This document shows positions 12,812 to 56,542 of a DNA stretch of 64,000 bases, one piece after another (the first letter of the stretch is position 1; every line of letters starts with the position of its first letter). The DNA lies in the NCBI GenBank assembly GCA_020348925.1, contig CP070758.1:3301688-3365687 (forward strand), in the 5' to 3' direction. This DNA comes from Gemmatimonadota bacterium (GTDB taxonomy: Bacteria; JBHIER01; G020348925). A program made the translations under genes and the position numbers. The notes beneath the pieces were generated by a model that ran no database searches, was not told the origin of the DNA, and saw only the letters and a list, made by a program, of their open reading frames with translations.

Positions 12812-13646
12812 TACGAAAAAAATGTATTTCAATGAGATTGCGGTGAGAGAACCGAGACACGTCCTGCTCGCCCTTATCAAAGCCTTCAACCGGACGACGG
12901 TCGTAGTTACCGTGTTGGGGTTCCTGGCCCTTATGGGCCATCACGTCTACACGTGGGCTCTTCAGACGCCGTTCTTTGAGATCCAAGAGATTCGTGTGCG
13001 GGGACATCATATCATTTCCGAGGAGAGGGCCTTGAGCTTGATTGGGATCGAGGAGGACTGTAATATCTTCCGGTGCGATGTCGATGCGGTGGAGCGGAGG
13101 GTTGCCCAGGATCCTTTTGTGCGAAAGGCGGACGTGAAACGTCGTTTGCCCTCAAAGCTTCTCCTTTCGATCGAGGAGAGAAAGCCCTTGGCCTTTTTGG
13201 CCGATATGATCGGTATGGTCGACGACGAGGGCGTACTGCTTCCACCCATTGCTCCGGAACAGTGGTCCGATCTCCCGCTCTTGACAGGGATTGGGGTAGA
13301 AAAGATCCGCTTTGGGGAGCCGCTTCAGTCTGAGCCGGTAGCGTGGGCCGTCTCTTTTCTCAAGGCCGCGGCCGCATTGAACTCGAACGGAGCTCTTGAA
13401 ATTACCGAGATCGATCTGAGCGATATGGCACATCCGCTTTTGTACGCCGGTGACAGGAGTGTTCCCGTCAGGATTGGGGTGACGGGCTCTCTGTCACAAT
13501 TGACCAGTCTTCCTGTCGTCCTGGCGGATTTAGAGCGGAAGGGGATAGAGGCCGAATATATCGATGTGCGCTTTTCGAATCAGATTCTTGTCAGGCCGAG
13601 AAGATTTACGAACATGGGGCTGGAATCAAAGGCAGTGAAAGGTTGA
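12804..13646 (+). CDS. ftsQ: Cell division protein FtsQ/DivIB
   Basis: Single TM, POTRA-like segment (FEIQEIRVRG...VKRRLPSKL..IEERKP), C-terminal YIDVRF; position before ftsA. Confidence 0.85.
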   Translation: MRSTKKMYFNEIAVREPRHVLLALIKAFNRTTVVVTVLGFLALMGHHVYTWALQTPFFEIQEIRVRGHHIISEERALSLIGIEEDCNIFRCDVDAVERRVAQDPFVRKADVKRRLPSKLLLSIEERKPLAFLADMIGMVDDEGVLLPPIAPEQWSDLPLLTGIGVEKIRFGEPLQSEPVAWAVSFLKAAAALNSNGALEITEIDLSDMAHPLLYAGDRSVPVRIGVTGSLSQLTSLPVVLADLERKGIEAEYIDVRFSNQILVRPRRFTNMGLESKAVKG

Positions 13647-13757
13647 CGCCCAATAATCACACTAAAACTCAAGAAAGGAGAAAATTTCTTTTGATTCCAG
13701 CCCCTGATAAAACGTCTATGGAGAACAGCGAAATGGTTTAAACGTGAACATAAAAAA

Positions 13758-13875
13758 TCTGAGCAGGTGACTGGCCAGGGTTCATTGACAAAACGATAAG
13801 CAAGCCTACCATTCCTGTCACATCACATTCTCTCTCCGTATTTTGTCCCTCTCAAATGGCCATAGCCTGCTCAGA
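13758..13875 (+). ncRNA. Candidate structured RNA motif, copy 1
   Basis: Outer stem TCTGAGCAGG/CCTGCTCAGA, inner TGGCC/GGCCA; shares TGACAAAACGATAAGC and TTGT(T)CCCTCT with the copy at 45800-45903; strand inferred. Confidence 0.6.
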
Positions 13876-13890
13876 GTCCTGACATGCCGT

Positions 13891-13995
13891 TGTTGAGCAG
13901 GTGAGTAGTCGGTGATTGTGACTATTCTACCCGTAACGCTTTGATGTTGAAACAATCGCCATTGTCCCTCTCTCGTGGCGAAAGCCTGCTCAACA
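13891..13995 (+). ncRNA. Candidate structured RNA motif, copy 2
   Basis: Outer stem TGTTGAGCAGG/CCTGCTCAACA, GAGTA/GAAA internal loop, GTC/GGC stem, hairpin GGTGATTGT/ACAATCGCC, TTGTCCCTCT. Confidence 0.6.
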
Positions 13996-14037
13996 CCGCA
14001 TGTTTTCTGCAGTACGGGAGGAGGAACGGTTTCGAGC

Positions 14038-15279
14038 ATGGGGAATGAAAACTCGGTCATTGTGGGTCTCGATATAGGCACGACGAAGATCGGCGTCATT
14101 GTGGCTGAGATCGGTGCCGATGGTGAGGTGCGCATTGTGGGTGTCGGCACGAGCCCTTCGGAAGGGCTCAGGCGCGGTGTCGTGGTCAATGTGGAGAAAA
14201 CGGTCCAGTCGATAAAGACTGCCGTGGCCAGGGCTGAGCGCAGTTCCGGGAAAAAGATTTCGTCCGTCTACGCCGGGATTGCCGGGGACCACATTCGGTC
14301 CATTAACAGCCGGGGTGTTATTGCGGTCTCCAGGGGTGATCATGAGATCACCCCCGGTGATGTGAGACGGGTCATCGACGCTGCCAAGGCCGTGGCCATT
14401 CCCATGGACCGAGAGATTATTCATGTTCTTCCGCAGGGTTACGTCGTGGACGACCAATCCGGTATCAAAGATCCCGTTGGCATGGCCGGAGTGCGATTGG
14501 AAGCGGAGGTCCATATCGTGACAGGGGCGGTCACTTCGGCTCAGAACATATACAACAGTATTAGGAAGGCGGGATTGGAAGTGAAGGATCTCGTGCTCCA
14601 ACCCCTGGCTTCGAGTTACGCTGTCCTGTCTCAAGATGAAATGGAGCTTGGTGTCGGACTGCTGGATATCGGGGGCGGGACGACGGATATCGCTCTCTTC
14701 TTTGAGGGAAGTATCCGACACACGGCCGTCATCGGCTTCGGAGGAAGAAATGTCACCAACGATATTGCCATCGGACTCAGAACGCCGGTGGACAAGGCCG
14801 AGGAGATCAAGATCGAAAAGGGATGCGCCTTACAGACCATGATGGACAAGGATGAGGTCATGGAGGTGGAAAGCACCGGCGGTCGGCCGTCCCGGCAGAT
14901 ATCGCGCAGCGTCCTGTGCAGCGTCATCGAGCCAAGAGTGGAGGAGATCTTCAGTCTGGCGCGCCGAGAGATCAAAAAGTCCGACTACGCGGGCCTTCTG
15001 ACGACCGGTATCGTCATCACCGGAGGATCCTCGTTGATCGAAGGTTCGGTAGAACTGGCCGAGCAGGTCTTCGACCTCCCGGTCAAGCTCGGAGTACCGC
15101 AGGAGATCGGCGAGACAATGGATGAAGTGAAAAGTCCGGTCTTTTCGACGGGAATCGGGCTCATCCATTATGCTCAAAAGCATCGGACGGGCGATAACGG
15201 ATTTTGGGACATCAGTGAGTCGAACCCTTTTGAAAAAATTTTGGAACGTATGAAAGGCTGGTTTCGAGATTTCTTTTAA
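14038..15279 (+). CDS. ftsA: Cell division protein FtsA
   Basis: [38 protein letters not shown] upstream of ATG 14038. Confidence 0.96.
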
Positions 15280-25672: not shown

Positions 25673-25800
25673 ATATCTTCCATTCAGATCGAGGTGTTCA
25701 ATATGCCAGTGCCAAATTCAGAAAGCTTCTCACCGACCATCGGTTCACCCAAAGCATGTCTGGAAAAGGCAATTGCTATGACAATGCTATTATGGAGTCA
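25673..25800 (+). repeat. Exact duplicate of internal IS3 orfB segment 26731-26858
   Basis: 128 nt identical to 26731-26858, abutting the left IR of the intact element. Confidence 0.9.
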
Positions 25801-25869
25801 TGATCCTCCCCCGGTATTGTGGACACACCGAAAAGTTTCTATATTATCAAGAAACAATGGAGGTGTGTC

Positions 25870-26172
25870 ATGGCCCCATACAAGCCGCGACGGAGGTTTG
25901 AGCGGGAGTTCAAGCTTGAGGCCGTTCGACTGGTGAATCAGGATGGTCGAACCCTCAAATCGGTTGCAGAAGATCTCGGTCTTCATCCGAATGTACTGAG
26001 TCGCTGGAGGCGAGAGTTTCTCAGAGAGTCTGAGGATGCGTTTCCAGGAAAAGGTCATCTTACTCCTCAGGAGGAAGAGATTCGGCGTCTGAAGCGGAAG
26101 CTGGCAGACGCAGAGGAGGAGCGTGACATCTTAAAAAAAGCCGTGGCCTTCTTTGCCAAACGCTCCGAGTGA
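25870..26172 (+). CDS. IS3 transposase OrfA (HTH)
   Basis: RRFEREFKLEAV...VAEDLG..W...EERDILKKAVAFF; GGAGG upstream. Confidence 0.92.
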   Translation: MAPYKPRRRFEREFKLEAVRLVNQDGRTLKSVAEDLGLHPNVLSRWRREFLRESEDAFPGKGHLTPQEEEIRRLKRKLADAEEERDILKKAVAFFAKRSE

Positions 26173-27026
26173 AATTCGAGTTCATCGAGACTCACCGCTC
26201 CGCATTCAGAGTGACAAAGATGTGCCACGTGCTTGCTGTATCCCGGAGCGGGTATTACGCCTGGAGGAAGCGGCCCAAGAGCCATCGGGACAAGGAGAAT
26301 GATCAATTGGTGGACAGAATCAAAGAGATCCATAGATCCAGTCGAGGATTGTACGGGTGCCCCAGGGTGACTGCCGAGCTTCATGCTAAAGGCATTCAGT
26401 GCGGTCACAACAGAATTGCCCGTCTGATGCGTCTCAACGGCCTCAGATCGAAGATTCAGCGCAGGTTTAAGGTAACGACTCATTCCCGTCATCATTTGCC
26501 GATAGCTCCCAATATACTCGACAGAACGTTCACGACCGATTCTGCAAATCAGGTTTGGGTATCAGATATCACGTACATTCGAACTCAAGAGGGATGGCTT
26601 TATTTAGCCGCCATACTCGATGTCTATTCCCGACACATTGTTGGATGGTCTATGAGTCGATTCCTTGGCCAGGAGCTGGTCCTGGGTGCCCTGCAGCAAG
26701 CATTAGGAAGACGGAAGTTGACTGAAGGTCATATCTTCCATTCAGATCGAGGTGTTCAATATGCCAGTGCCAAATTCAGAAAGCTTCTCACCGACCATCG
26801 GTTCACCCAAAGCATGTCTGGAAAAGGCAATTGCTATGACAATGCTATTATGGAGTCATTCTTCCACACCTTGAATACAGAGTTGGTTCAATTTCATAGA
26901 TATCAGACAAGAGCCGAAGCCAGGGAGTCTGTCTTTGAATACATTGAAGTCTTCTACAATCGTATACGAAGGCATTCATCTCTCGACTATCGTTCTCCAT
27001 TTGAATTTGAAAGGATACAACAATAA
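26169..27026 (+). CDS. IS3 transposase OrfB (DDE integrase core), fused to OrfA by -1 frameshift
   Basis: [38 protein letters not shown]. Confidence 0.95.
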   Translation: MKFEFIETHRSAFRVTKMCHVLAVSRSGYYAWRKRPKSHRDKENDQLVDRIKEIHRSSRGLYGCPRVTAELHAKGIQCGHNRIARLMRLNGLRSKIQRRFKVTTHSRHHLPIAPNILDRTFTTDSANQVWVSDITYIRTQEGWLYLAAILDVYSRHIVGWSMSRFLGQELVLGALQQALGRRKLTEGHIFHSDRGVQYASAKFRKLLTDHRFTQSMSGKGNCYDNAIMESFFHTLNTELVQFHRYQTRAEARESVFEYIEVFYNRIRRHSSLDYRSPFEFERIQQ

Positions 27027-35945: not shown

Positions 35946-37329
35946 AGGAATGTCAAGAGAGTTTTCAATTGCTATGCCAAGAGCGTCCACATTGTAGACA
36001 ATTATTACTTACTTATTTTTATAGTTTTATACAAAGAGTAGAATAGAAGAGATTTAGTCGTTAACTGAGTTGACACCATCCCTGTTGCGTTTCATTTCAT
36101 CTCTCACCACACATCTTCGGATTTTATTCATTTAATGTTATAATTTTATTGAACTTAGTTGAAACACTCGACTTTTTTACATCTCTTTTTCTCCACCGGT
36201 ATACTTTTCTCTATTTCAATTAGTCAAAGAAAGAGGAAAATGTTGTTCTGCTGGCAGTGGTGTGAAGGGAGGAGAGTCAGAGCGATCAAGAAATGAACCG
36301 AGTGAGGAAGAATCTCCTTGTAATGGAAGATATGTCCGGGTGGGGAAAGCATAATCTTTATGAAATGAAACCGCTCGATGAAAAGTCTCCTCTGACAGGG
36401 GTGAGTGCCTGTCTCTCTGTCCGCTCGAAGGAATGGGATGTATGAGGTGAGATTTGCAGAATGACACTTTAGTCTTTGTCTCAGATGGGCCTGAGGAGTA
36501 TCATGTAAAAAAATAGATTTTTTGGAAATCTATAATGCAGATGAATTACGCGTTTCAAGTTTCGGAGTCAAGGGCACTTTCGTAGGTATGAATAAGGGGA
36601 ATGCGCATGCATGAAGCGATCGTCGATTAACCGATATGCTCCCCTACCTGGGCGAGCTGACGGATGTGGATGGATTAAAATGGAGGAAGTTGCCACAGTA
36701 ATTGTGCATCCGATACTCGCAACCATCTCTCCCAACTGTCAATGCTCGCCCAGGATATTATCCCTCCACTATGAAACGGCCTTTCCTCGAGGCCCTCGTA
36801 ATTTTTTCAGAATCGGCACGCTTTTTTTCAAAAAAAGAGACTGAAGGAAAACGGTCAAATATATCTTCGAAAACGTAATGTCTGAGCCCTGTGTGGCAAT
36901 TTTCCTCTGATTGAAAGGATCGGCTGGTGCCCCTGTCAGGTGTGGGGAAAATTCCTGCCTCGCTGTAAATTGCAACGGCGCTCGCCGTTCGATAAAAACT
37001 TTCATATGAAATGTGCTTCTCGGTTTCTATGGCCACAAAATTCAACAAAATAACACAGACTACTTGACCTCGAAACGATACGGGCTTCGTAATCCCACCG
37101 TGATTCATAAACTCTCATCTTCACCGGTTGACTTTCGCTCGAAACACGATGGCCCTGCACTGCAGGCGGCATAAGGGTCATTGAAAATAGGATCATATCC
37201 TGTGAATAGAAAATATGCGATTTCGGGGGTCGGTTATGAATGCTGTGGACAACGAAAAAATTGTAGGAGCATATTATTTATGAGGGGATCAATGAAAAAA
37301 TTCAGTCTTAAAAAAATTAAAAATTTTGC

Positions 37330-37359
37330 TTGACAAAGGTGAGACTCTATATTTATATT
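37330..37359 (+). promoter_or_regulatory. Sigma70-type promoter of HU/IHF gene
   Basis: TTGACA-N18-TATATT with AT-rich upstream tract. Confidence 0.55.
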
Positions 37360-37420
37360 AGTTCTAACTTAAAAATAATAAGTTATTTAATCTTGTTTGA
37401 ACCTTAGTCAGGGGGGAGTC

Positions 37421-42631: not shown

Positions 42632-43786
42632 ATGAAATTGAACATCGAAGGGAAGAGAATTTTTGCGATTACCCTCTTGGTCGTCATCATTTCGTTTCTT
42701 CATTATGTTACCAGCATTCAATCCCCTCATCTCCACGCCATATACGCCCGGGCTTATTATATCCCCATTATCCTGGCAGCCTTCTGGTATAGCTTGAGAG
42801 GCGGGATTGTCGTGTCCGCGGTCGTCGGTCTCATTTATCTGCCCCACGTCATCTTTCAGTGGGGTGGTGGCTTGGGAAATCTGAGTCGGTTTCTGGAGAT
42901 CGTGATGTTCATCGTGGGGGGATTGCTGACAGGTCTTATGGTTGAGCTAGTGGTGGAGCAGAGGAACAAGTATCAAAAGAATGCCCAGGAGCTGGTACGA
43001 TCGTACGAAAAACTGAGGGGGCAGACCGAAAAACTCCTGGAAATGGAGGATCATCTCCGGACTTCTGACCGATTGGCCGTTATGGGGGAACTGAGCGCCA
43101 GTTTGGCCCACGAGGTGAGAAATCCTCTCGGATCGATCAGAGGTACCGTCGATATTCTGAGGAAAGAATTCCCGGCCGGTGGCAAGCACATGGAATTCTT
43201 TAAAATATTGGTGCAGGAGGTCAATCGTCTGAATGAGGTTGTCGAGCGCTATCTCGGACTGGCGAAGCAAAAGCGGCAGAAAATGGTTGAAAAAAACTTA
43301 TGTGATATCGTTCAATCCGTGGTCGATCTCGTCTCCGCAAAGGCTCGCAAGGAAAAGATCGATCTTATTGTTGTGAAACCTGCGGAGACAATTACAGTAT
43401 TCACCGATGAGACGCTTCTGCAACAGGTCTTACTCAATATTCTTCTGAATGCCATGGCCTCAATGGAAGAGGGTGGGCGCATCCTCATCTCCCCTTCACT
43501 CAAGAGAGAAGCCCCGAAGGCAGGAACCTCCCCTCACCCCTACGCTTCAGTGACCGTTTCCGATACGGGCAAGGGGATAAAGGAGGCGGAGATCGATAAC
43601 GTTTTCAAACCTTTCTATACGACGAAGGCCGAGGGAACGGGTCTGGGCTTGGCCATTGCCAAGCGCTCTCTCCAACAGCTCGGTGGAGAAATCGGGCTGG
43701 AGAGTAAGGAGGGAGCCGGAACCTTAGTCACAATTACTCTTCCTTCAGCGGAGGGAAAGCGGAAGAATCTATGGGATCAATCTTAG
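42632..43786 (+). CDS. Membrane sensor histidine kinase
   Basis: N-terminal TMs; AHEVRNPL, NILLNA, DTGKG, PFYTTK.EGTGLGL. Confidence 0.94.
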   Translation: MKLNIEGKRIFAITLLVVIISFLHYVTSIQSPHLHAIYARAYYIPIILAAFWYSLRGGIVVSAVVGLIYLPHVIFQWGGGLGNLSRFLEIVMFIVGGLLTGLMVELVVEQRNKYQKNAQELVRSYEKLRGQTEKLLEMEDHLRTSDRLAVMGELSASLAHEVRNPLGSIRGTVDILRKEFPAGGKHMEFFKILVQEVNRLNEVVERYLGLAKQKRQKMVEKNLCDIVQSVVDLVSAKARKEKIDLIVVKPAETITVFTDETLLQQVLLNILLNAMASMEEGGRILISPSLKREAPKAGTSPHPYASVTVSDTGKGIKEAEIDNVFKPFYTTKAEGTGLGLAIAKRSLQQLGGEIGLESKEGAGTLVTITLPSAEGKRKNLWDQS

Positions 43787-45114
43787 TCATTGACGACGAC
43801 GAAAGTTTCATCCGGGTTCTGGAGCATATGTTGATTGAAGACGGCCATCGGGTGGCGACGGCCAGTGACGGTGAACGCGGACTCAAGATCTTCAAGGGCG
43901 GTTCTTTCGACATTGTACTCACGGATCTGATGATGCCCAAGCTCGACGGCATGGCGGTCCTCAAGGAGGTGAGACGAATCGATCGAGAGGCGATCGTCAT
44001 TTTCATCACTGCCCATGGGACCGTGGAGAATGCAGTTGAAGCCTGTCGCCTCGGAGCTACCGATTATATCACGAAACCATTCAGCCATGAGCAGTTGAGT
44101 TTCGTCGTGGAGAAGGCGATCAAGGTGCGGGAATTGCTCTCGGAGAATATTCGCCTGCAAACTGAATTGTCTGAGAAGTATCAATTCAAGAATATTGTGG
44201 GGCGAAGCGCCCGGATGGAAGAGGTCTTTCGGCTGGCAGGCCAGGTAGCAGGGAGCGATGCCACAGTTCTTCTACTGGGAGAAAGCGGCACCGGAAAAGA
44301 ACTCATTGCACGGGCGATCCATTTTAACAGTCCGAGGGAGAAAAGACGTTTTATGGCCATCAACTGTGCGTCCATTCCGGACAATCTGATGGAGAGTGAA
44401 CTCTTCGGCCATGTGAAAGGTGCTTTCACCGGAGCGATGAAGGATAAAAAAGGTAAGTTTGAGTTGGCTGATGGCGGGACCATCTTCCTCGATGAAGTGG
44501 CCGATTTAAAGAGCGACCTCCAGGCGAAACTTCTCCGTTTTTTACAGGAGCGAGAGTTTGAACCTGTCGGTGCTACCGAGCCGATACGAGTCGATGTCCG
44601 TATCATCGCAGCAACCAACAAGGATCTTGAAAAATTAATCCGCGAGGAGAAGTTTCGCGAGGATCTCTATTACAGGCTGAGCGTTGTACCCGTCGTGCTC
44701 CCACCTTTGAGAGCGAGGAAGGACGATATTCCCCTGCTCGTCGATCATTTCCTGAGGAAATACGGAGGGGAAAAATCCTTCACCGTCGCTGACGATGCCA
44801 TGAAGATTCTTTACGAGTTCGACTGGCCGGGCAACGTCCGGGAACTGGAAAACGTGGTGGAACGGGCCGTCGTGTTGGCCGGAGGCGGGGTGATAACGTC
44901 CGATTTACTCCCCTCATCACTTCGGACAGGGCGTTTCGAGGGAAAAGAATTCGAGGTCACCACAGAGGGTCTCTCCATGGCCGAAGTTGAAAGGCAGACT
45001 CTTCTTGCAGCCTTGGAGCGCACGGGCTGGAACAAGACCAAAGCGGCGGAGTCACTGGAGATTCCGCGACATGTTTTGATGTATAAAATGAAGAAATTGG
45101 GACTCCAAGGCTAA
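43771..45114 (+). CDS. Sigma54-dependent NtrC-family response regulator
   Basis: Receiver (VIDDD, TDLMMP, KPF), GESGTGKE, GAFTGA, Fis HTH. Confidence 0.95.
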   Translation: MGSILVIDDDESFIRVLEHMLIEDGHRVATASDGERGLKIFKGGSFDIVLTDLMMPKLDGMAVLKEVRRIDREAIVIFITAHGTVENAVEACRLGATDYITKPFSHEQLSFVVEKAIKVRELLSENIRLQTELSEKYQFKNIVGRSARMEEVFRLAGQVAGSDATVLLLGESGTGKELIARAIHFNSPREKRRFMAINCASIPDNLMESELFGHVKGAFTGAMKDKKGKFELADGGTIFLDEVADLKSDLQAKLLRFLQEREFEPVGATEPIRVDVRIIAATNKDLEKLIREEKFREDLYYRLSVVPVVLPPLRARKDDIPLLVDHFLRKYGGEKSFTVADDAMKILYEFDWPGNVRELENVVERAVVLAGGGVITSDLLPSSLRTGRFEGKEFEVTTEGLSMAEVERQTLLAALERTGWNKTKAAESLEIPRHVLMYKMKKLGLQG

Positions 45115-45564
45115 ATGCTATGGTTCGAAAGTTCGTTGCCGTCTTTTCGCGTTTGTTTCAAAAATAGGGCCATCGAGAAAAACCTGATCAGTGGCAGTCA
45201 TTGCCAGCCTTCCGATGCCTCGGAACCTTGTCTGGGAGCAGCCGAAGGGACAAACGTCAGCCCGCGATCTCTTTTCTTAAGCTGTCTCTGCGGGCACCGG
45301 GCAGAGCCCGGGACAAAGTACGCATGCGATATTTGCCTCACACCTGATAATGTGAGGGAAGCGGAGCAATCTTTCTCGAACACAGAGAGCGCTTCTTCCT
45401 GCCCTGCTCCGCACGACATTCCTCGCAGTGACGACTTGAGACGAGACAATTGCTCTGTCCTGCCCAGTGCAGAAGTTCCCCCTTCTGAGGAACGCTCCCT
45501 CCGAGGTGCGTTCCTAATAATGAGACAAACGAACTCGCATGAAGCGGTTGGTTTCAAGCAATTC

Positions 45565-45609
45565 GTGCACAAAAGTGCATGAATTGCACCTCTCCCTGTG
45601 CACGTGCAT
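45565..45609. promoter_or_regulatory. Putative enhancer (UAS) for the adjacent NtrC-family regulator
   Basis: Cluster of TGCAC/GTGCA half-sites: GTGCACAAAAGTGCATGAATTGCAC and GTGCACGTGCAT, about 100 bp upstream of a sigma54-like promoter. Confidence 0.55.
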
Positions 45610-45689
45610 TTGTATTGAATTCTGACTCTTTAATTGTATCCCCTTGTATTACATTACTATAGTAATCTTTTTATATTTTTTTGTTGTTC

Positions 45690-45704
45690 TGGCACGAAAT
45701 TTGT
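45690..45704 (+). promoter_or_regulatory. Sigma54-like promoter 1
   Basis: TGGCACG-AAAT-TTGT (one mismatch to TGGCACG-N4-TTGC). Confidence 0.6.
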
Positions 45705-45799
45705 TTATTAAAGGGGCAGTTGTATGACGAACTCATTTATGCTCCTTTCCTTTCAGTCGATTTGTTTGAAAGGGAAGCCGAAAGATAGATTGAAAGACA

Positions 45800-45903
45800 A
45801 CCGCAGGCGAGTAGCCGGGTTATGACAAAACGATAAGCTAACCTACCTATTCGTCCTACCAAATTTTCCGCTATTGTTCCCTCTTTTGGTGAAAGCCTGC
45901 GGT
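45800..45903 (+). ncRNA. Candidate structured RNA motif, copy 3
   Basis: ACCGCAGGC/GCCTGCGGT, GAGTA/GAAA loop, GCC/GGT, GGGTTA/TAACCT hairpin with loop TGACAAAACGATAAGC, TTGTTCCCTCT. Confidence 0.65.
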
Positions 45904-45942
45904 GTTTTTCAAACCTTCAGGTTAAAACCTGGTTCTTCCTCC

Positions 45943-45986
45943 TGCAGAATAATCGACACCGAATGAAGATTATTCTGCATTTTTTT
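45943..45986 (+). terminator. Intrinsic terminator
   Basis: Perfect 12-bp stem TGCAGAATAATC/GATTATTCTGCA followed by T7. Confidence 0.75.
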
Positions 45987-46095
45987 GCTCTTCAATATAC
46001 GACAGAAAGAAACGTCACCTTCGAGAGGTTTGTAACCCTTTGGGAATAAGCCGTTAGCGAGAAACGCGAACGGCTTATTTTTTTGGTACCGAAAA

Positions 46096-46110
46096 TGGCA
46101 CGGAACTTGC
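46096..46110 (+). promoter_or_regulatory. Sigma54 promoter 2, upstream of heavy-metal operon
   Basis: TGGCACG-GAAC-TTGC, perfect -24/-12 consensus. Confidence 0.8.
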
Positions 46111-46181
46111 GATAGGGTCTATTGAAAGTTGCCCAAAGGATGTTTGCCTGAGAATTGTGTGAATCGAAAGAGGAGTTGAAT

Positions 46182-46523
46182 GTGACCGGGATAATGAAAG
46201 TGAATAAGATAGGACTCATGTTGGTTCTGGTGGGAGTCGTTGGGACTGTGCTCTTCTTTCCATGGAAGTTAGAGAACGGAAGAACGTGCATGGCCCAACG
46301 TTACATCCATGGTGAAGGCCTTCAGGCCGAAGGAAATTCCATGATGGAACATGGTCATTCCCTCGCTCGATATTACGTTTTTCACTACGGATTGTTTTGG
46401 TGGGTGAGCATGGGATTGATAATAACCGGATTCTGTCTCGTTCGAAAGAAAAAACCGATAGAAGAAGATGTCAGAATGAGCCGGGAAATGAAGAGAGTGG
46501 AAGCAGCAAAAATGACGGAATGA
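46182..46523 (+). CDS. Small two-TM hypothetical protein with Met/His/Cys loop
   Basis: AGGAG SD plus GTG; two hydrophobic segments around TCMAQRYIHG...MMEHGH. Confidence 0.6.
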   Translation: MTGIMKVNKIGLMLVLVGVVGTVLFFPWKLENGRTCMAQRYIHGEGLQAEGNSMMEHGHSLARYYVFHYGLFWWVSMGLIITGFCLVRKKKPIEEDVRMSREMKRVEAAKMTE

Positions 46524-54894: not shown

Positions 54895-54994
54895 NNNNNN
54901 NNNNNNNNNNNNNNNNNNNNNNNNNNNNNNNNNNNNNNNNNNNNNNNNNNNNNNNNNNNNNNNNNNNNNNNNNNNNNNNNNNNNNNNNNNNNNN
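54895..54994. other. Assembly gap (100 N placeholder)
   Basis: Run of N; both flanking genes lack hundreds of codons. Confidence 1.
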
Positions 54995-56542
54995 ATCCCT
55001 GAGCATTTTGAGGATCCGTATCATCCTGTCCGTATCCCTCGGATGAAGGCCTATCGTCGGCTCATCCAGGATGTAGAGAGTGCCCACCAGGTGGGCTCCA
55101 AGTGAGTTCGCCAGGTTGATGCGCTGCGCCTCCCCACCGGAGAGGGTTCGGGTCATCCGGTCCAAGGTGACATAATCGAGACCTATATCAATGAGGTATT
55201 CCAAACGGTTCCCGATCTCCTTGAGAAGCTGCTCCGCAATCGTCCCCTCATACTCCGTCAGTTTCAAAGTACCGAACCATTCTCGTGCTTGCGGGACTGT
55301 CATGCGGTTTATGTCAGCAATAGTTTTGTCCGCAATTTTAACGTGCAATGCCTCCTGCCGCAGCTTCGCTCCGTGGCACATCGGGCAGTCCCGCAACCCC
55401 ATATACCGTCTGGCCAGAAACCGGGCAAATTTTTTGTATCTCTTTTTCTCCAGATAATCGAAGAACTCAAAAACGCCATCGAAATCGTCGGTCCCGTGCA
55501 AGACCATATCCCTGTGCTTTTTCTTCAGTTTCTCGAAGGGCACCTCGAGGGGCACGCCGTGATTTTTGGAAAGCGTCTCCAGCTCATCCTTGAAATAGTA
55601 CCACCATTTCGATTTGGACCAGGGCTCGACGGCTCCGCCGGCCAGTGTTTTGCTTTTATCCGGGATGATGAGATCGAGATCGAAATGGAGCTTGTTGCCG
55701 AAACCGCGGCACTCGGGACAGGCTCCGTAGGGATTGTTGAAGGAGAACAGCTGCGGCGTCGGCTTTTTGTATTCGATGTGGCAATCCAGACAGACGAAGC
55801 GCTCGCTGTATCCGCGCAATTCGCCACCCTGGGCGTATACATAGGCCTGCCCGTCGCCGTTCAGAAAGGCCGTCTGGATCGAGTCGGCCAGGCGCTGTTC
55901 AATCTCCGGGCTGATGACGAGCCGATCCACCACGACAAAGAGTGTATCACATGAAGATGAATCGATGGGCGGAACCGGATCCAGGGGAAGGACCTCACCG
56001 TTGACCATGATACGGATGAATCCCTGGGACATCAAATCCTTCGCCACCTCTCTCATTGAGAGAGTCGTATCGATTTTCAAGGGGAAGAGAATCAGACATT
56101 TCGTCCCGGCTTGTAACTCCATGGTTTTATCCACCACACCCTGTACCGTCTCAGCCTTGACCTCTTTTCCACAGTTACTGCAGAACGTCCTCCCGATCCG
56201 GGCCCACAGCAGGCGCAAGTAGTCGTAAACTTCCGTCGCCGTCCCGACGGTGGAGCGGGACGTCTTGACCGGGTTCTTCTGCTCGATGGCGATGGCCGGA
56301 TTGATCCCTTCGATGGCGTCGACGTCCGGCTTGTCCATCCGCTCCAAGAACTGTTTGGCGTACGTCGACAGCGACTCCACGTATCGCCGTTGTCCCTCGG
56401 CGTAGAGCGTGTCAAAGGCCAGTGAAGACTTCCCCGATCCGCTCACCCCGGTGATCACCGTCAGGGTATTGCGCGGAATCTCGATATCCAGATTCTTCAG
56501 ATTATGCTGCCTGGCCCCTTTTATGCGGATGGCGTTCGTCAT
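54995..56542 (-). CDS. uvrA: Excinuclease ABC subunit A (3' half lost in gap)
   Basis: GARQHNLKN, GVSGSGKSSLAFDT, FSFNNP.GAC..C.G, TLSGGEAQRI, LDEPTIGLH. Confidence 0.95.

Follow-up and report, generated by a model that had tools for sequence, protein, structure and literature searches.

A very likely sigma54-dependent small RNA gene from an uncatalogued family of sibling RNAs in an uncultured bacterium

What is encoded by the non-coding DNA that separates an NtrC-type regulator gene from a set of YHS and Cus-like efflux genes in an uncultured bacterium? The interval occupies positions 45565-45986 of a 64,000-nt stretch of contig CP070758.1 (the whole stretch is hereafter called the window), and the host genome measures 5.04 Mb. 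The initial annotation had described it as a stand-alone sigma54-type non-coding unit of ~270 nt, and this description is upheld: the TGCA cluster, the spacer, the TGGCACG-N4-TTGT box, the hairpin, the module, the 12-bp stem followed by seven T, and a further box at 46096 are all in place, the unit has its own promoter and terminator, and no open reading frame (ORF) exceeds 33 codons on the + strand. Judged from sequence conservation and predicted structure, 45716-45986 is with high probability an independent sigma54-dependent small RNA (sRNA) gene and belongs to a family of sibling RNAs, restricted to the phylum, in which the scaffold is common and the promoters differ. For the whole reading, in which this gene is also switched on through an enhancer bound by a sigma54 activator and its product pairs in trans with Shine-Dalgarno (SD)-like sites, we put the probability at roughly 0.4. 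The elements of the unit and its immediate surroundings are listed below.

45566-45608, + strand: TGCA cluster, a putative upstream activator (enhancer-like) site, with the core TGCR-N6-YGCA-N5-TGCA at 45566-45588
45609-45689, + strand: AT-rich spacer from enhancer to promoter, conserved in length and only loosely in sequence
45690-45704, + strand: sigma54 -24/-12 box TGGCACG-N4-TTGT with a -12 variant; the aligned boxes are TGGCACG-N4-TTGC in L065 and TGGTACG-N4-TTGC in L066
45716-45986, + strand: predicted small RNA of ~270 nt, from promoter/terminator geometry, folding (z = -5.3), and weak cover by relatives' RNA-library contigs
45741-45776, + strand: 5′ hairpin with arms 45747-45755 and 45767-45776, its 5′ arm with an anti-SD-like word at 45741-45750
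45791-45912, + strand: family module, comprising a closing stem with an AGUA/GAA internal loop, an ACAAAA-loop hairpin (45817-45843), and a C/U-rich strand of ~45 nt (45844-45889)
45917-45942, + strand: small hairpin and single-stranded anti-SD-like linker (45933-45942)
45943-45986, + strand: intrinsic terminator with a 12-bp stem and U7, present in four of four orthologues
46020-46084, + strand: second conserved element with a second terminator-like hairpin, kept in L065 and not in L066
46096-46110, + strand: second, perfect sigma54 box, serving a 122-aa membrane gene, the YHS gene, and the Cus-like efflux genes

Orthologous loci were compared in two metagenomic sequences (L065 and L066) and in contig C213 of a second genome (G001), which begins inside the module. 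In both loci that have upstream sequence, enhancer, sigma54 box, 5′ word and hairpin, module, linker, and terminator follow in the same order, and the promoter-motif-terminator arrangement, named in the initial annotation as a check, is conserved in 2 of 2 orthologues; the 3′ part of the module, the linker, and the terminator are also kept in C213. The end of the enhancer core lies 101, 101, and 102 bp from the sigma54 box in the host, L065, and L066, respectively, so that the upstream site falls within the usual 80-150 bp in all three. Both orthologues carry a -24/-12 box of the form GG-N10-GC with the canonical TTGC at -12, and the GT variant occurs in the host genome only among the three. 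Module identity amounts to 107 of 112 aligned columns for L065 and 107 of 110 for L066, as against ~46% in DNA further upstream. Within the RNA, the 5′ word (45741-45750) shows no change in 3 of 3 orthologues, in contrast to the variable 3′ arm of its hairpin, and the mostly unpaired linker (45933-45942) is invariant in 4 of 4 whereas the adjoining small hairpin is variable. The terminator stem has two-sided changes in L066 and G001, with a weaker U-run in L066; a mechanical terminator scan did not list the stem at 45943, its loop exceeding the scan's 8-nt limit, but the fold prediction shows it.

The predicted transcript also folds far better than expected by chance. Folding of 45716-45990 gives -84.6 kcal/mol (z = -5.3), a stability equalled by none of 200 shuffles, and the orthologous predicted RNAs are 281 and 318 nt long. 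The longest + strand ORF, of 33 codons from 45724, is absent from L065 and L066, and a short-peptide reading was rejected. The sequence features of a stand-alone sRNA are present, namely its own promoter and terminator and no conserved ORF. An internal sigma70 promoter starting from a -35-like hexamer was considered and dropped, no conserved -10 being found. Contigs of 156-277 nt from relatives' RNA libraries cover 45727-45986 in four of four runs from four studies, one starting at 45727 and another extending 48 letters beyond the terminator; these contigs show neither strand nor ends, may be DNA-derived, and come from runs selected for carrying words of the stretch or of the module. That they leave the neighbouring genes uncovered is uninformative, the runs having been chosen for the module and belonging to relatives. 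Altogether, the locus very likely encodes a stand-alone sRNA dependent on sigma54.

Could the element instead be a leader or attenuator of the YHS/Cus operon and not a free RNA? It lies on the same strand as the downstream genes, the contig that runs past the terminator would fit such an arrangement, and in its subfamily the closing stem can be folded in another way. However, two terminator-like hairpins and a separate sigma54 box stand before the next gene, the downstream genes differ in two of three orthologous loci, and nothing conserved was seen that could compete with the terminator fold, which together make a leader highly unlikely. The second conserved element (16 nt, within 46020-46084, between the RNA and the second sigma54 box) was overlooked by the initial annotation; its hairpin may insulate the next promoter or end a longer form of the RNA.

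The module is not confined to this locus, and its number of copies genome-wide had also been missed. BLAST and iterated nhmmer searches found 11 copies in the host genome (G000), and a covariance model built from 15 copies found 11 in G000 and 10 in G001; the module of the present unit scores 99 bits with covariance model R1. These two genomes, from different genera and 96% and 87% complete, represent the phylum in the set examined. All eight metagenome loci recovered by an exact-pattern scan score 94-105 bits with the covariance model, L061-L063 being near-identical to each other. Common to all copies is a long stem that joins the ends and is broken by AGUA opposite GAA, letters that we take to be those of the bulged-G (loop E / sarcin-ricin) motif; the ACAAAA-loop hairpin is usual. 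Among 26 copies, most keep the AGUA/GAA letters and flanking helices (variant in the ftsA-a, L001, and L005 groups), and the C/U-rich strand is 33-53 nt long with 73% pyrimidine and 7% G. In the alignment of these 26 copies, which leans to the covariance model, pairs are formed in 89% of cells and two-sided changes are seen in 14 of 23 pairs; none of 500 shuffles reaches 14 of 23, and slid controls pair at 26-45%. RNAalifold on an unfitted alignment recovered the closing stem, with two-sided changes in 9 of 15 predicted pairs, but did not predict the ACAAAA hairpin, which rests on the model-fitted count.

Searches beyond the lineage returned next to nothing. One of 148 other genomes produced one low-scoring hit (25 bits, E 0.003), which is put down to chance, a second model added two matches only (E about 0.2), and no copy was found in viral contigs. 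A pattern scan of a species collection gave nine matches, of which the six outside the lineage did not score with the model. FtsA of G000 is 86% identical to that of G001, and the nearest named FtsA proteins (64-66%) belong to KSB1, Zixibacteria, Edwardsbacteria, TA06, and Latescibacterota; none of the five genomes with the closest FtsA matched the module model, and for KSB1, Zixibacteria, and Latescibacterota absence rests on the exact-match pattern only, no model search having knowingly included them. At gathering cut-offs, Rfam recognizes one tRNA only in the whole window, and low-threshold scans yielded eight matches in 45100-46200 and three in 13600-14100, all far below cut-offs. No description of this RNA was found in the literature covered, which lacked supplements and most subscription papers, so that a motif table elsewhere is possible. 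On this covariation and conservation, we regard the modules as a real and uncatalogued RNA family.

One challenge to that conclusion is a dispersed DNA repeat, such as a MITE or REP element, with no role as RNA. The module is indeed multi-copy and intergenic with inverted ends, and it has one recent-looking near-duplicate. Nevertheless, the two genera have six copies in common by position (the ftsA pair, L001/L017, L003/L013, L004/L047, and L006/L049), and these are conserved far better than their flanks, the stem tolerates G-U pairs and keeps a strand-asymmetric internal loop, and promoters and terminators are conserved around the copies; the repeat explanation is largely refuted and hardly tenable. 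Several shared-locus copies have sigma70-like promoters (by eye), and the G001-only copies L055 and L059 have sigma54-like boxes. L001, L004, and L006 of G000 each face a convergent gene and are found at the same locus in G001; they are therefore read as free RNAs, not leaders. The loops differ among paralogues and are near-identical between orthologues across genera.

Three copies occupy leader-like positions, the tandem pair before ftsA and L002. The pair lies in the window:

13751-13882, + strand: paralogous module (112 bits), first of a tandem pair between ftsQ and ftsA, at the same place in G001, L064, L067, and L068
13885-14001, + strand: paralogous module (68 bits), second of the pair, without the ACAAAA hairpin, at the same place in G001, L064, and L068

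Directly before these modules, at the ftsQ end (~13600-13690; also in L015, L064, L067, and L068), the last ftsQ codons form a 12-bp stem with downstream non-coding DNA that encloses the stop codon and a conserved SD-like word, and this stem could couple ftsQ translation to ftsA expression. L002 (G000 C1:2973671-2973800), the 87%-identical near-duplicate of the present module, looks like a captured copy: only a few bases separate its end from the ribosome-binding site of the next gene, which encodes a large secreted protein with carboxypeptidase-regulatory-like repeats. In G001, L055 (C64:8599-8709) is a sigma54-box-led module between a GAF sigma54 activator and an HU gene, and no module is present at the same locus in the window (35946-37400); members have therefore been gained or lost between genera. 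Several candidate features of the module were rejected. A pseudoknot between the ACAAAA loop and a 3′ U-rich word forms 5-7 bp in some copies and is broken in L003/L013, and the U-rich word persists where the hairpin is missing; a fold in which the loop pairs with the 5′ strand of the stem has the minimum energy in the subfamily of the present module and is not family-wide; and a DNA-guide role found no support, the loop having no second genomic match beyond paralogues.

If the gene is real, what switches it on? Five TGCA words within 45 nt, as at 45566-45608, occur nowhere else in the 5.04-Mb genome. With one mismatch allowed, the enhancer core stands before 6 of 279 sigma54-like boxes in G000, in every case at a distance of 89-101 bp, where 0.16 would be expected, and a reversed pattern gave none. 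The five other promoters (G000 C1: 579448(-), 1191181(-), 2726240(+), 4272589(-), and 4297355(+)) are followed by genes with signal-peptide-like starts (by eye) and by no metal gene. Their leaders, 250-380 nt long, hold 11 additional SD-like words, whereas the figure is 0.12 for a background window (n = 1125) and 0.63 after 27 other sigma54 boxes; 0 of 20,000 draws reached 11. The word was defined after viewing those leaders and two of the five are paralogous, which counts against this result. Genome-wide, there are 13 non-coding clusters of at least three such words, mostly before exported proteins. The enhancer would outline a six-promoter sigma54 regulon with unusual multi-SD leaders, and the AT-rich spacer may be a DNA-bending site.

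The initial annotation had placed the RNA under the adjacent two-component system as a metal-responsive sRNA, a separate question from the nature of the gene:

42632-45114, + strand: neighbouring sensor kinase and sigma54 response regulator (Pfam), whose link to the RNA is not supported

In favour of that proposal, the RNA lies between the regulator and the YHS/Cus genes, L065 keeps the order of RNA, box matching 46096-46110, 122-aa gene, and YHS gene, and the best family matches of the kinase include ZraS, below cut-off. Kinase and regulator fall below all named-family cut-offs, including AtoS/ZraS and AtoC/ZraR. Against it, the two-component genes flank neither L065, which has a divergent papain-family peptidase upstream, nor L066. 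In G001, where the orthologous kinase and regulator (75% and 79%) keep their upstream gene order, other DNA follows, with no module in the 1,437 nt to the contig end and none at a second regulator fragment. The YHS gene follows one of three orthologous RNAs (that of L065), the unrelated downstream genes being one without a Pfam match (acetyltransferase-like by eye) in L066 and a sugar transferase in C213; the enhancer is shared with secreted-protein promoters; and 43 tblastn matches to the regulator in the host genome, including receiver-only ones, point to many other sigma54 activators. Regulation is probably not metal-specific, and a metal-responsive role driven by the neighbouring system is quite unlikely. 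A suggested connection between metal stress and cell division loses its basis, because the copies before ftsA are 2 of 11 paralogues in varied contexts.

How such an RNA might act is the least secure step of the reading with sigma54 control and trans pairing. A sigma54 activator would bind the triple-TGCA enhancer and switch on the RNA together with several secreted-protein genes; the RNA would then act in trans, its pyrimidine-rich single strands pairing with ribosome-binding or SD-like sites of mRNAs, mainly through the two invariant anti-SD-like words outside the module. Pairing would lower translation of the targets without Hfq, and the common scaffold would serve stability or the binding of one common protein. 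A perfect complement of at least 8 nt to the 5′ word occurs in 244 of 3559 initiation windows, compared with 54 mid-gene and 89 ± 27 for shuffles (maximum 145 of 20); for the linker the figures are 145 of 3559, 55 mid-gene, and 43 ± 20 (maximum 95). Furthermore, the locus-specific loops are nearly fixed between genera and therefore favour sequence-specific partners on a common scaffold. The job of the RNA is probably translation control, and for trans pairing at SD-like sites the odds are somewhat short of even. A boxA-like reading of the 5′ word was rejected, its other genomic copies being mostly reverse-strand ribosome-binding sites; rRNA marker motifs were not found in the assembly, and hence there was no comparison with rRNA leaders.

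Several observations weigh against this picture, both for the promoter and for the pairing. At the promoter, TTGT is not enriched (GT ends 9 of 166 genomic TGGCAYR-N4-TTnn sites against 31 of 166 for GC), and a box identical to the 45690 copy lies inside coding sequence of the host genome; because of these two facts, the 45690 promoter may be weak in the host. No transcript of the host organism was seen, the RNA-library contigs being those of relatives, and the enhancer pattern was not found in G001 (87% complete). As for pairing, words of the anti-SD kind are generic, SD strength was the criterion by which start codons had been chosen, and the hairpin hides about half of the 5′ word. The central loop shows no excess, with 153 initiation-window complements against 207 ± 70 for shuffles, and among the 11 G000 loops L006 alone scores above every one of its 20 shuffles. 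In energy, the duplexes that three segments would form with the five co-regulated leaders do not stand out clearly from background (percentiles 6-35, 10-63, and 2-67), and the three leader-like copies fit a protein-binding site better.

This last point leads to a protein decoy of the Csr/Rsm or CrcZ type, in which the module binds one protein, stand-alone copies with their own promoters titrate it, and the ftsA and L002 copies are cis targets; candidate binders are the single RRM protein, Rho, and ribosomal protein S1. Such a decoy would suit the shared scaffold, the conserved composition of the loops, the minimal copy L053 that keeps only the stem and C/U strand, the conservation of the leader-like ftsA copies in four further sources, the presence of one RRM gene in each of the two genomes, and the lack of excess complementarity in the central loop. 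However, known decoys such as CsrB/C and CrcZ are described, in the available text, with several sites per RNA (PMC13501541), while here there is one module per RNA, and a decoy would leave unexplained why orthologous loops are nearly identical and why anti-SD-like words beyond the module are invariant. As for the usual binders, Hfq (PF17209), CsrA (PF02599), ProQ, and Ro60/TROVE (PF05731) were not found in either of the two genomes, control genomes being positive (Jag_N was found in G001 only). A decoy is the main rival of trans pairing, though somewhat less likely. Titration of a shared RNA-binding protein, as earlier proposed, falls as a link between metal and division but is possible as an idea about the family.

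A special form of decoy would be a 6S-like one, whose closing stem, bubble, and terminal hairpin would look to RNA polymerase like an open promoter and so capture it. Neither genome has an Rfam 6S RNA (RF00013; control genomes positive), the overall shape is that of stem, bubble, and hairpin, and the hairpin has a -35-like hexamer. Yet nearly all unpaired bases of the bubble belong to one side (0-5 nt facing ~45 nt), some copies lack the terminal hairpin, which is short in any case, a conserved hexamer of the -10 type is not seen after it, two copies sit inside the dcw operon, and 10-11 copies per genome are unlike 6S RNA, of which genomes hold one to three. This makes 6S-like decoys very unlikely. 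In Y RNA and 6S RNA, the 5′ and 3′ ends pair and hold a loop open, which resembles the architecture seen here; unlike them, the family has no Rfam match to either and no two-sided central bubble as in 6S, and no Ro60 (TROVE) gene was found in the two genomes.

By analogy, the RNA seems to work most like sibling sRNA families (FopS and Qrr, with cuckoo RNAs and NfeR1 for the anti-SD words), yet it shows the defining features of none of them. FopS of Bacteroides thetaiotaomicron is described as 14 paralogues with the RRM protein RbpB and translation repression near start codons (PMC11697453, available text). Like FopS (RF04319), the family comprises a dozen or so dispersed sibling sRNAs whose promoters differ, its host stands on the FCB side and encodes an RRM protein, and many candidate target leaders precede exported proteins; unlike it, the ends are closed in a long stem with an internal-loop motif, where FopS in the available text has a single-stranded 5′ seed and a terminator, and the Rfam score is 20.1 bits against a cut-off of 56. 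Qrr sRNAs depend on Hfq; the resemblance is that a stand-alone sRNA with several siblings is placed behind an activator site and a sigma54 promoter and is proposed to pair at ribosome-binding sites, and the differences are the lack of an Rfam match, the failure to find Hfq in the host genome, siblings under different sigma factors, and the shared closed scaffold. In Vibrio, Qrr1-5 are driven by LuxO-P with sigma54 (PMC13501541, available text).

Similar differences separate the remaining families. Cuckoo RNAs of Alphaproteobacteria are described with 2-4 hairpins, each with a CCUCCUCCC loop (PMC4615179, available text); the present RNA is alike in paralogy and pyrimidine-rich anti-SD-like words, but neither its sequence nor its fold has 2-4 hairpins each with CCUCCUCCC, and there is no Rfam match. 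NfeR1 pairs with the initiation region and is NtrC-repressed (PMC10746234, available text), so that anti-SD-like words, control by an NtrC-type regulator, and pairing at the initiation region are likenesses, whereas neither NfeR1 nor the cuckoo RNAs, as the available texts describe them, have a closing stem with a bulged-G-type loop. The family resembles CrcZ, CsrB/C, and GlmY as a non-coding RNA driven by a two-component system or sigma54. CrcZ and GlmY are under sigma54 control. The family differs from all of these in having no repeated binding words, no Hfq or CsrA found, and no Rfam match; the repeated GGA hairpin loops of CsrB/RsmZ are absent, the loops here being G-poor. As GlmY illustrates, one structural mimic can act as a decoy (PMC13501541, available text).

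What is new is a family of RNAs that is backed by covariation, has not been catalogued, and counts 10-11 members in each of the two genomes from which the phylum is known. Its sibling sRNAs share one scaffold, appear divided between sigma70 and sigma54 control, and occur in a host without the usual sRNA chaperones. The family bears on RNA regulation in bacteria without Hfq, and its promoters, enhancer, and terminators are resolved enough for direct tests; impact is limited for now, the organism being uncultured and the targets only inferred. More boldly, in a phylum that lacks Hfq, CsrA, ProQ, and a recognizable 6S RNA, post-transcriptional control might run through one modular scaffold of about ten RNAs on different sigma70 and sigma54 inputs, where a ring with a bulged-G handle would load a common protein and the locus-specific C/U strand would be a guide or a mimic of the 16S tail, acting on multi-SD secreted-protein leaders and, by embedded copies, on the ftsQ-ftsA junction; as a complete scheme, this is improbable.

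Some minor features of the host genome were also recorded. At 45340-45435 there is a degenerate copy of a palindromic repeat that is dispersed through intergenic DNA and has several relatives in the genome. Both the cusA-like and the uvrA frame stop at 54895-54999, where a run of N marks an assembly gap and not a biological break, and a 91%-identical cusA piece with a second YHS gene lies near G000 C1:4.99 Mb. Identical 50-nt stretches, each with a perfect sigma54 box, occur at the distant loci G000 C1:2971548(+) and 3444071(-), and identical 129-nt repeats (25673-25801 and 26731-26859) are found around an IS3-type transposase frame at 26169-27026.
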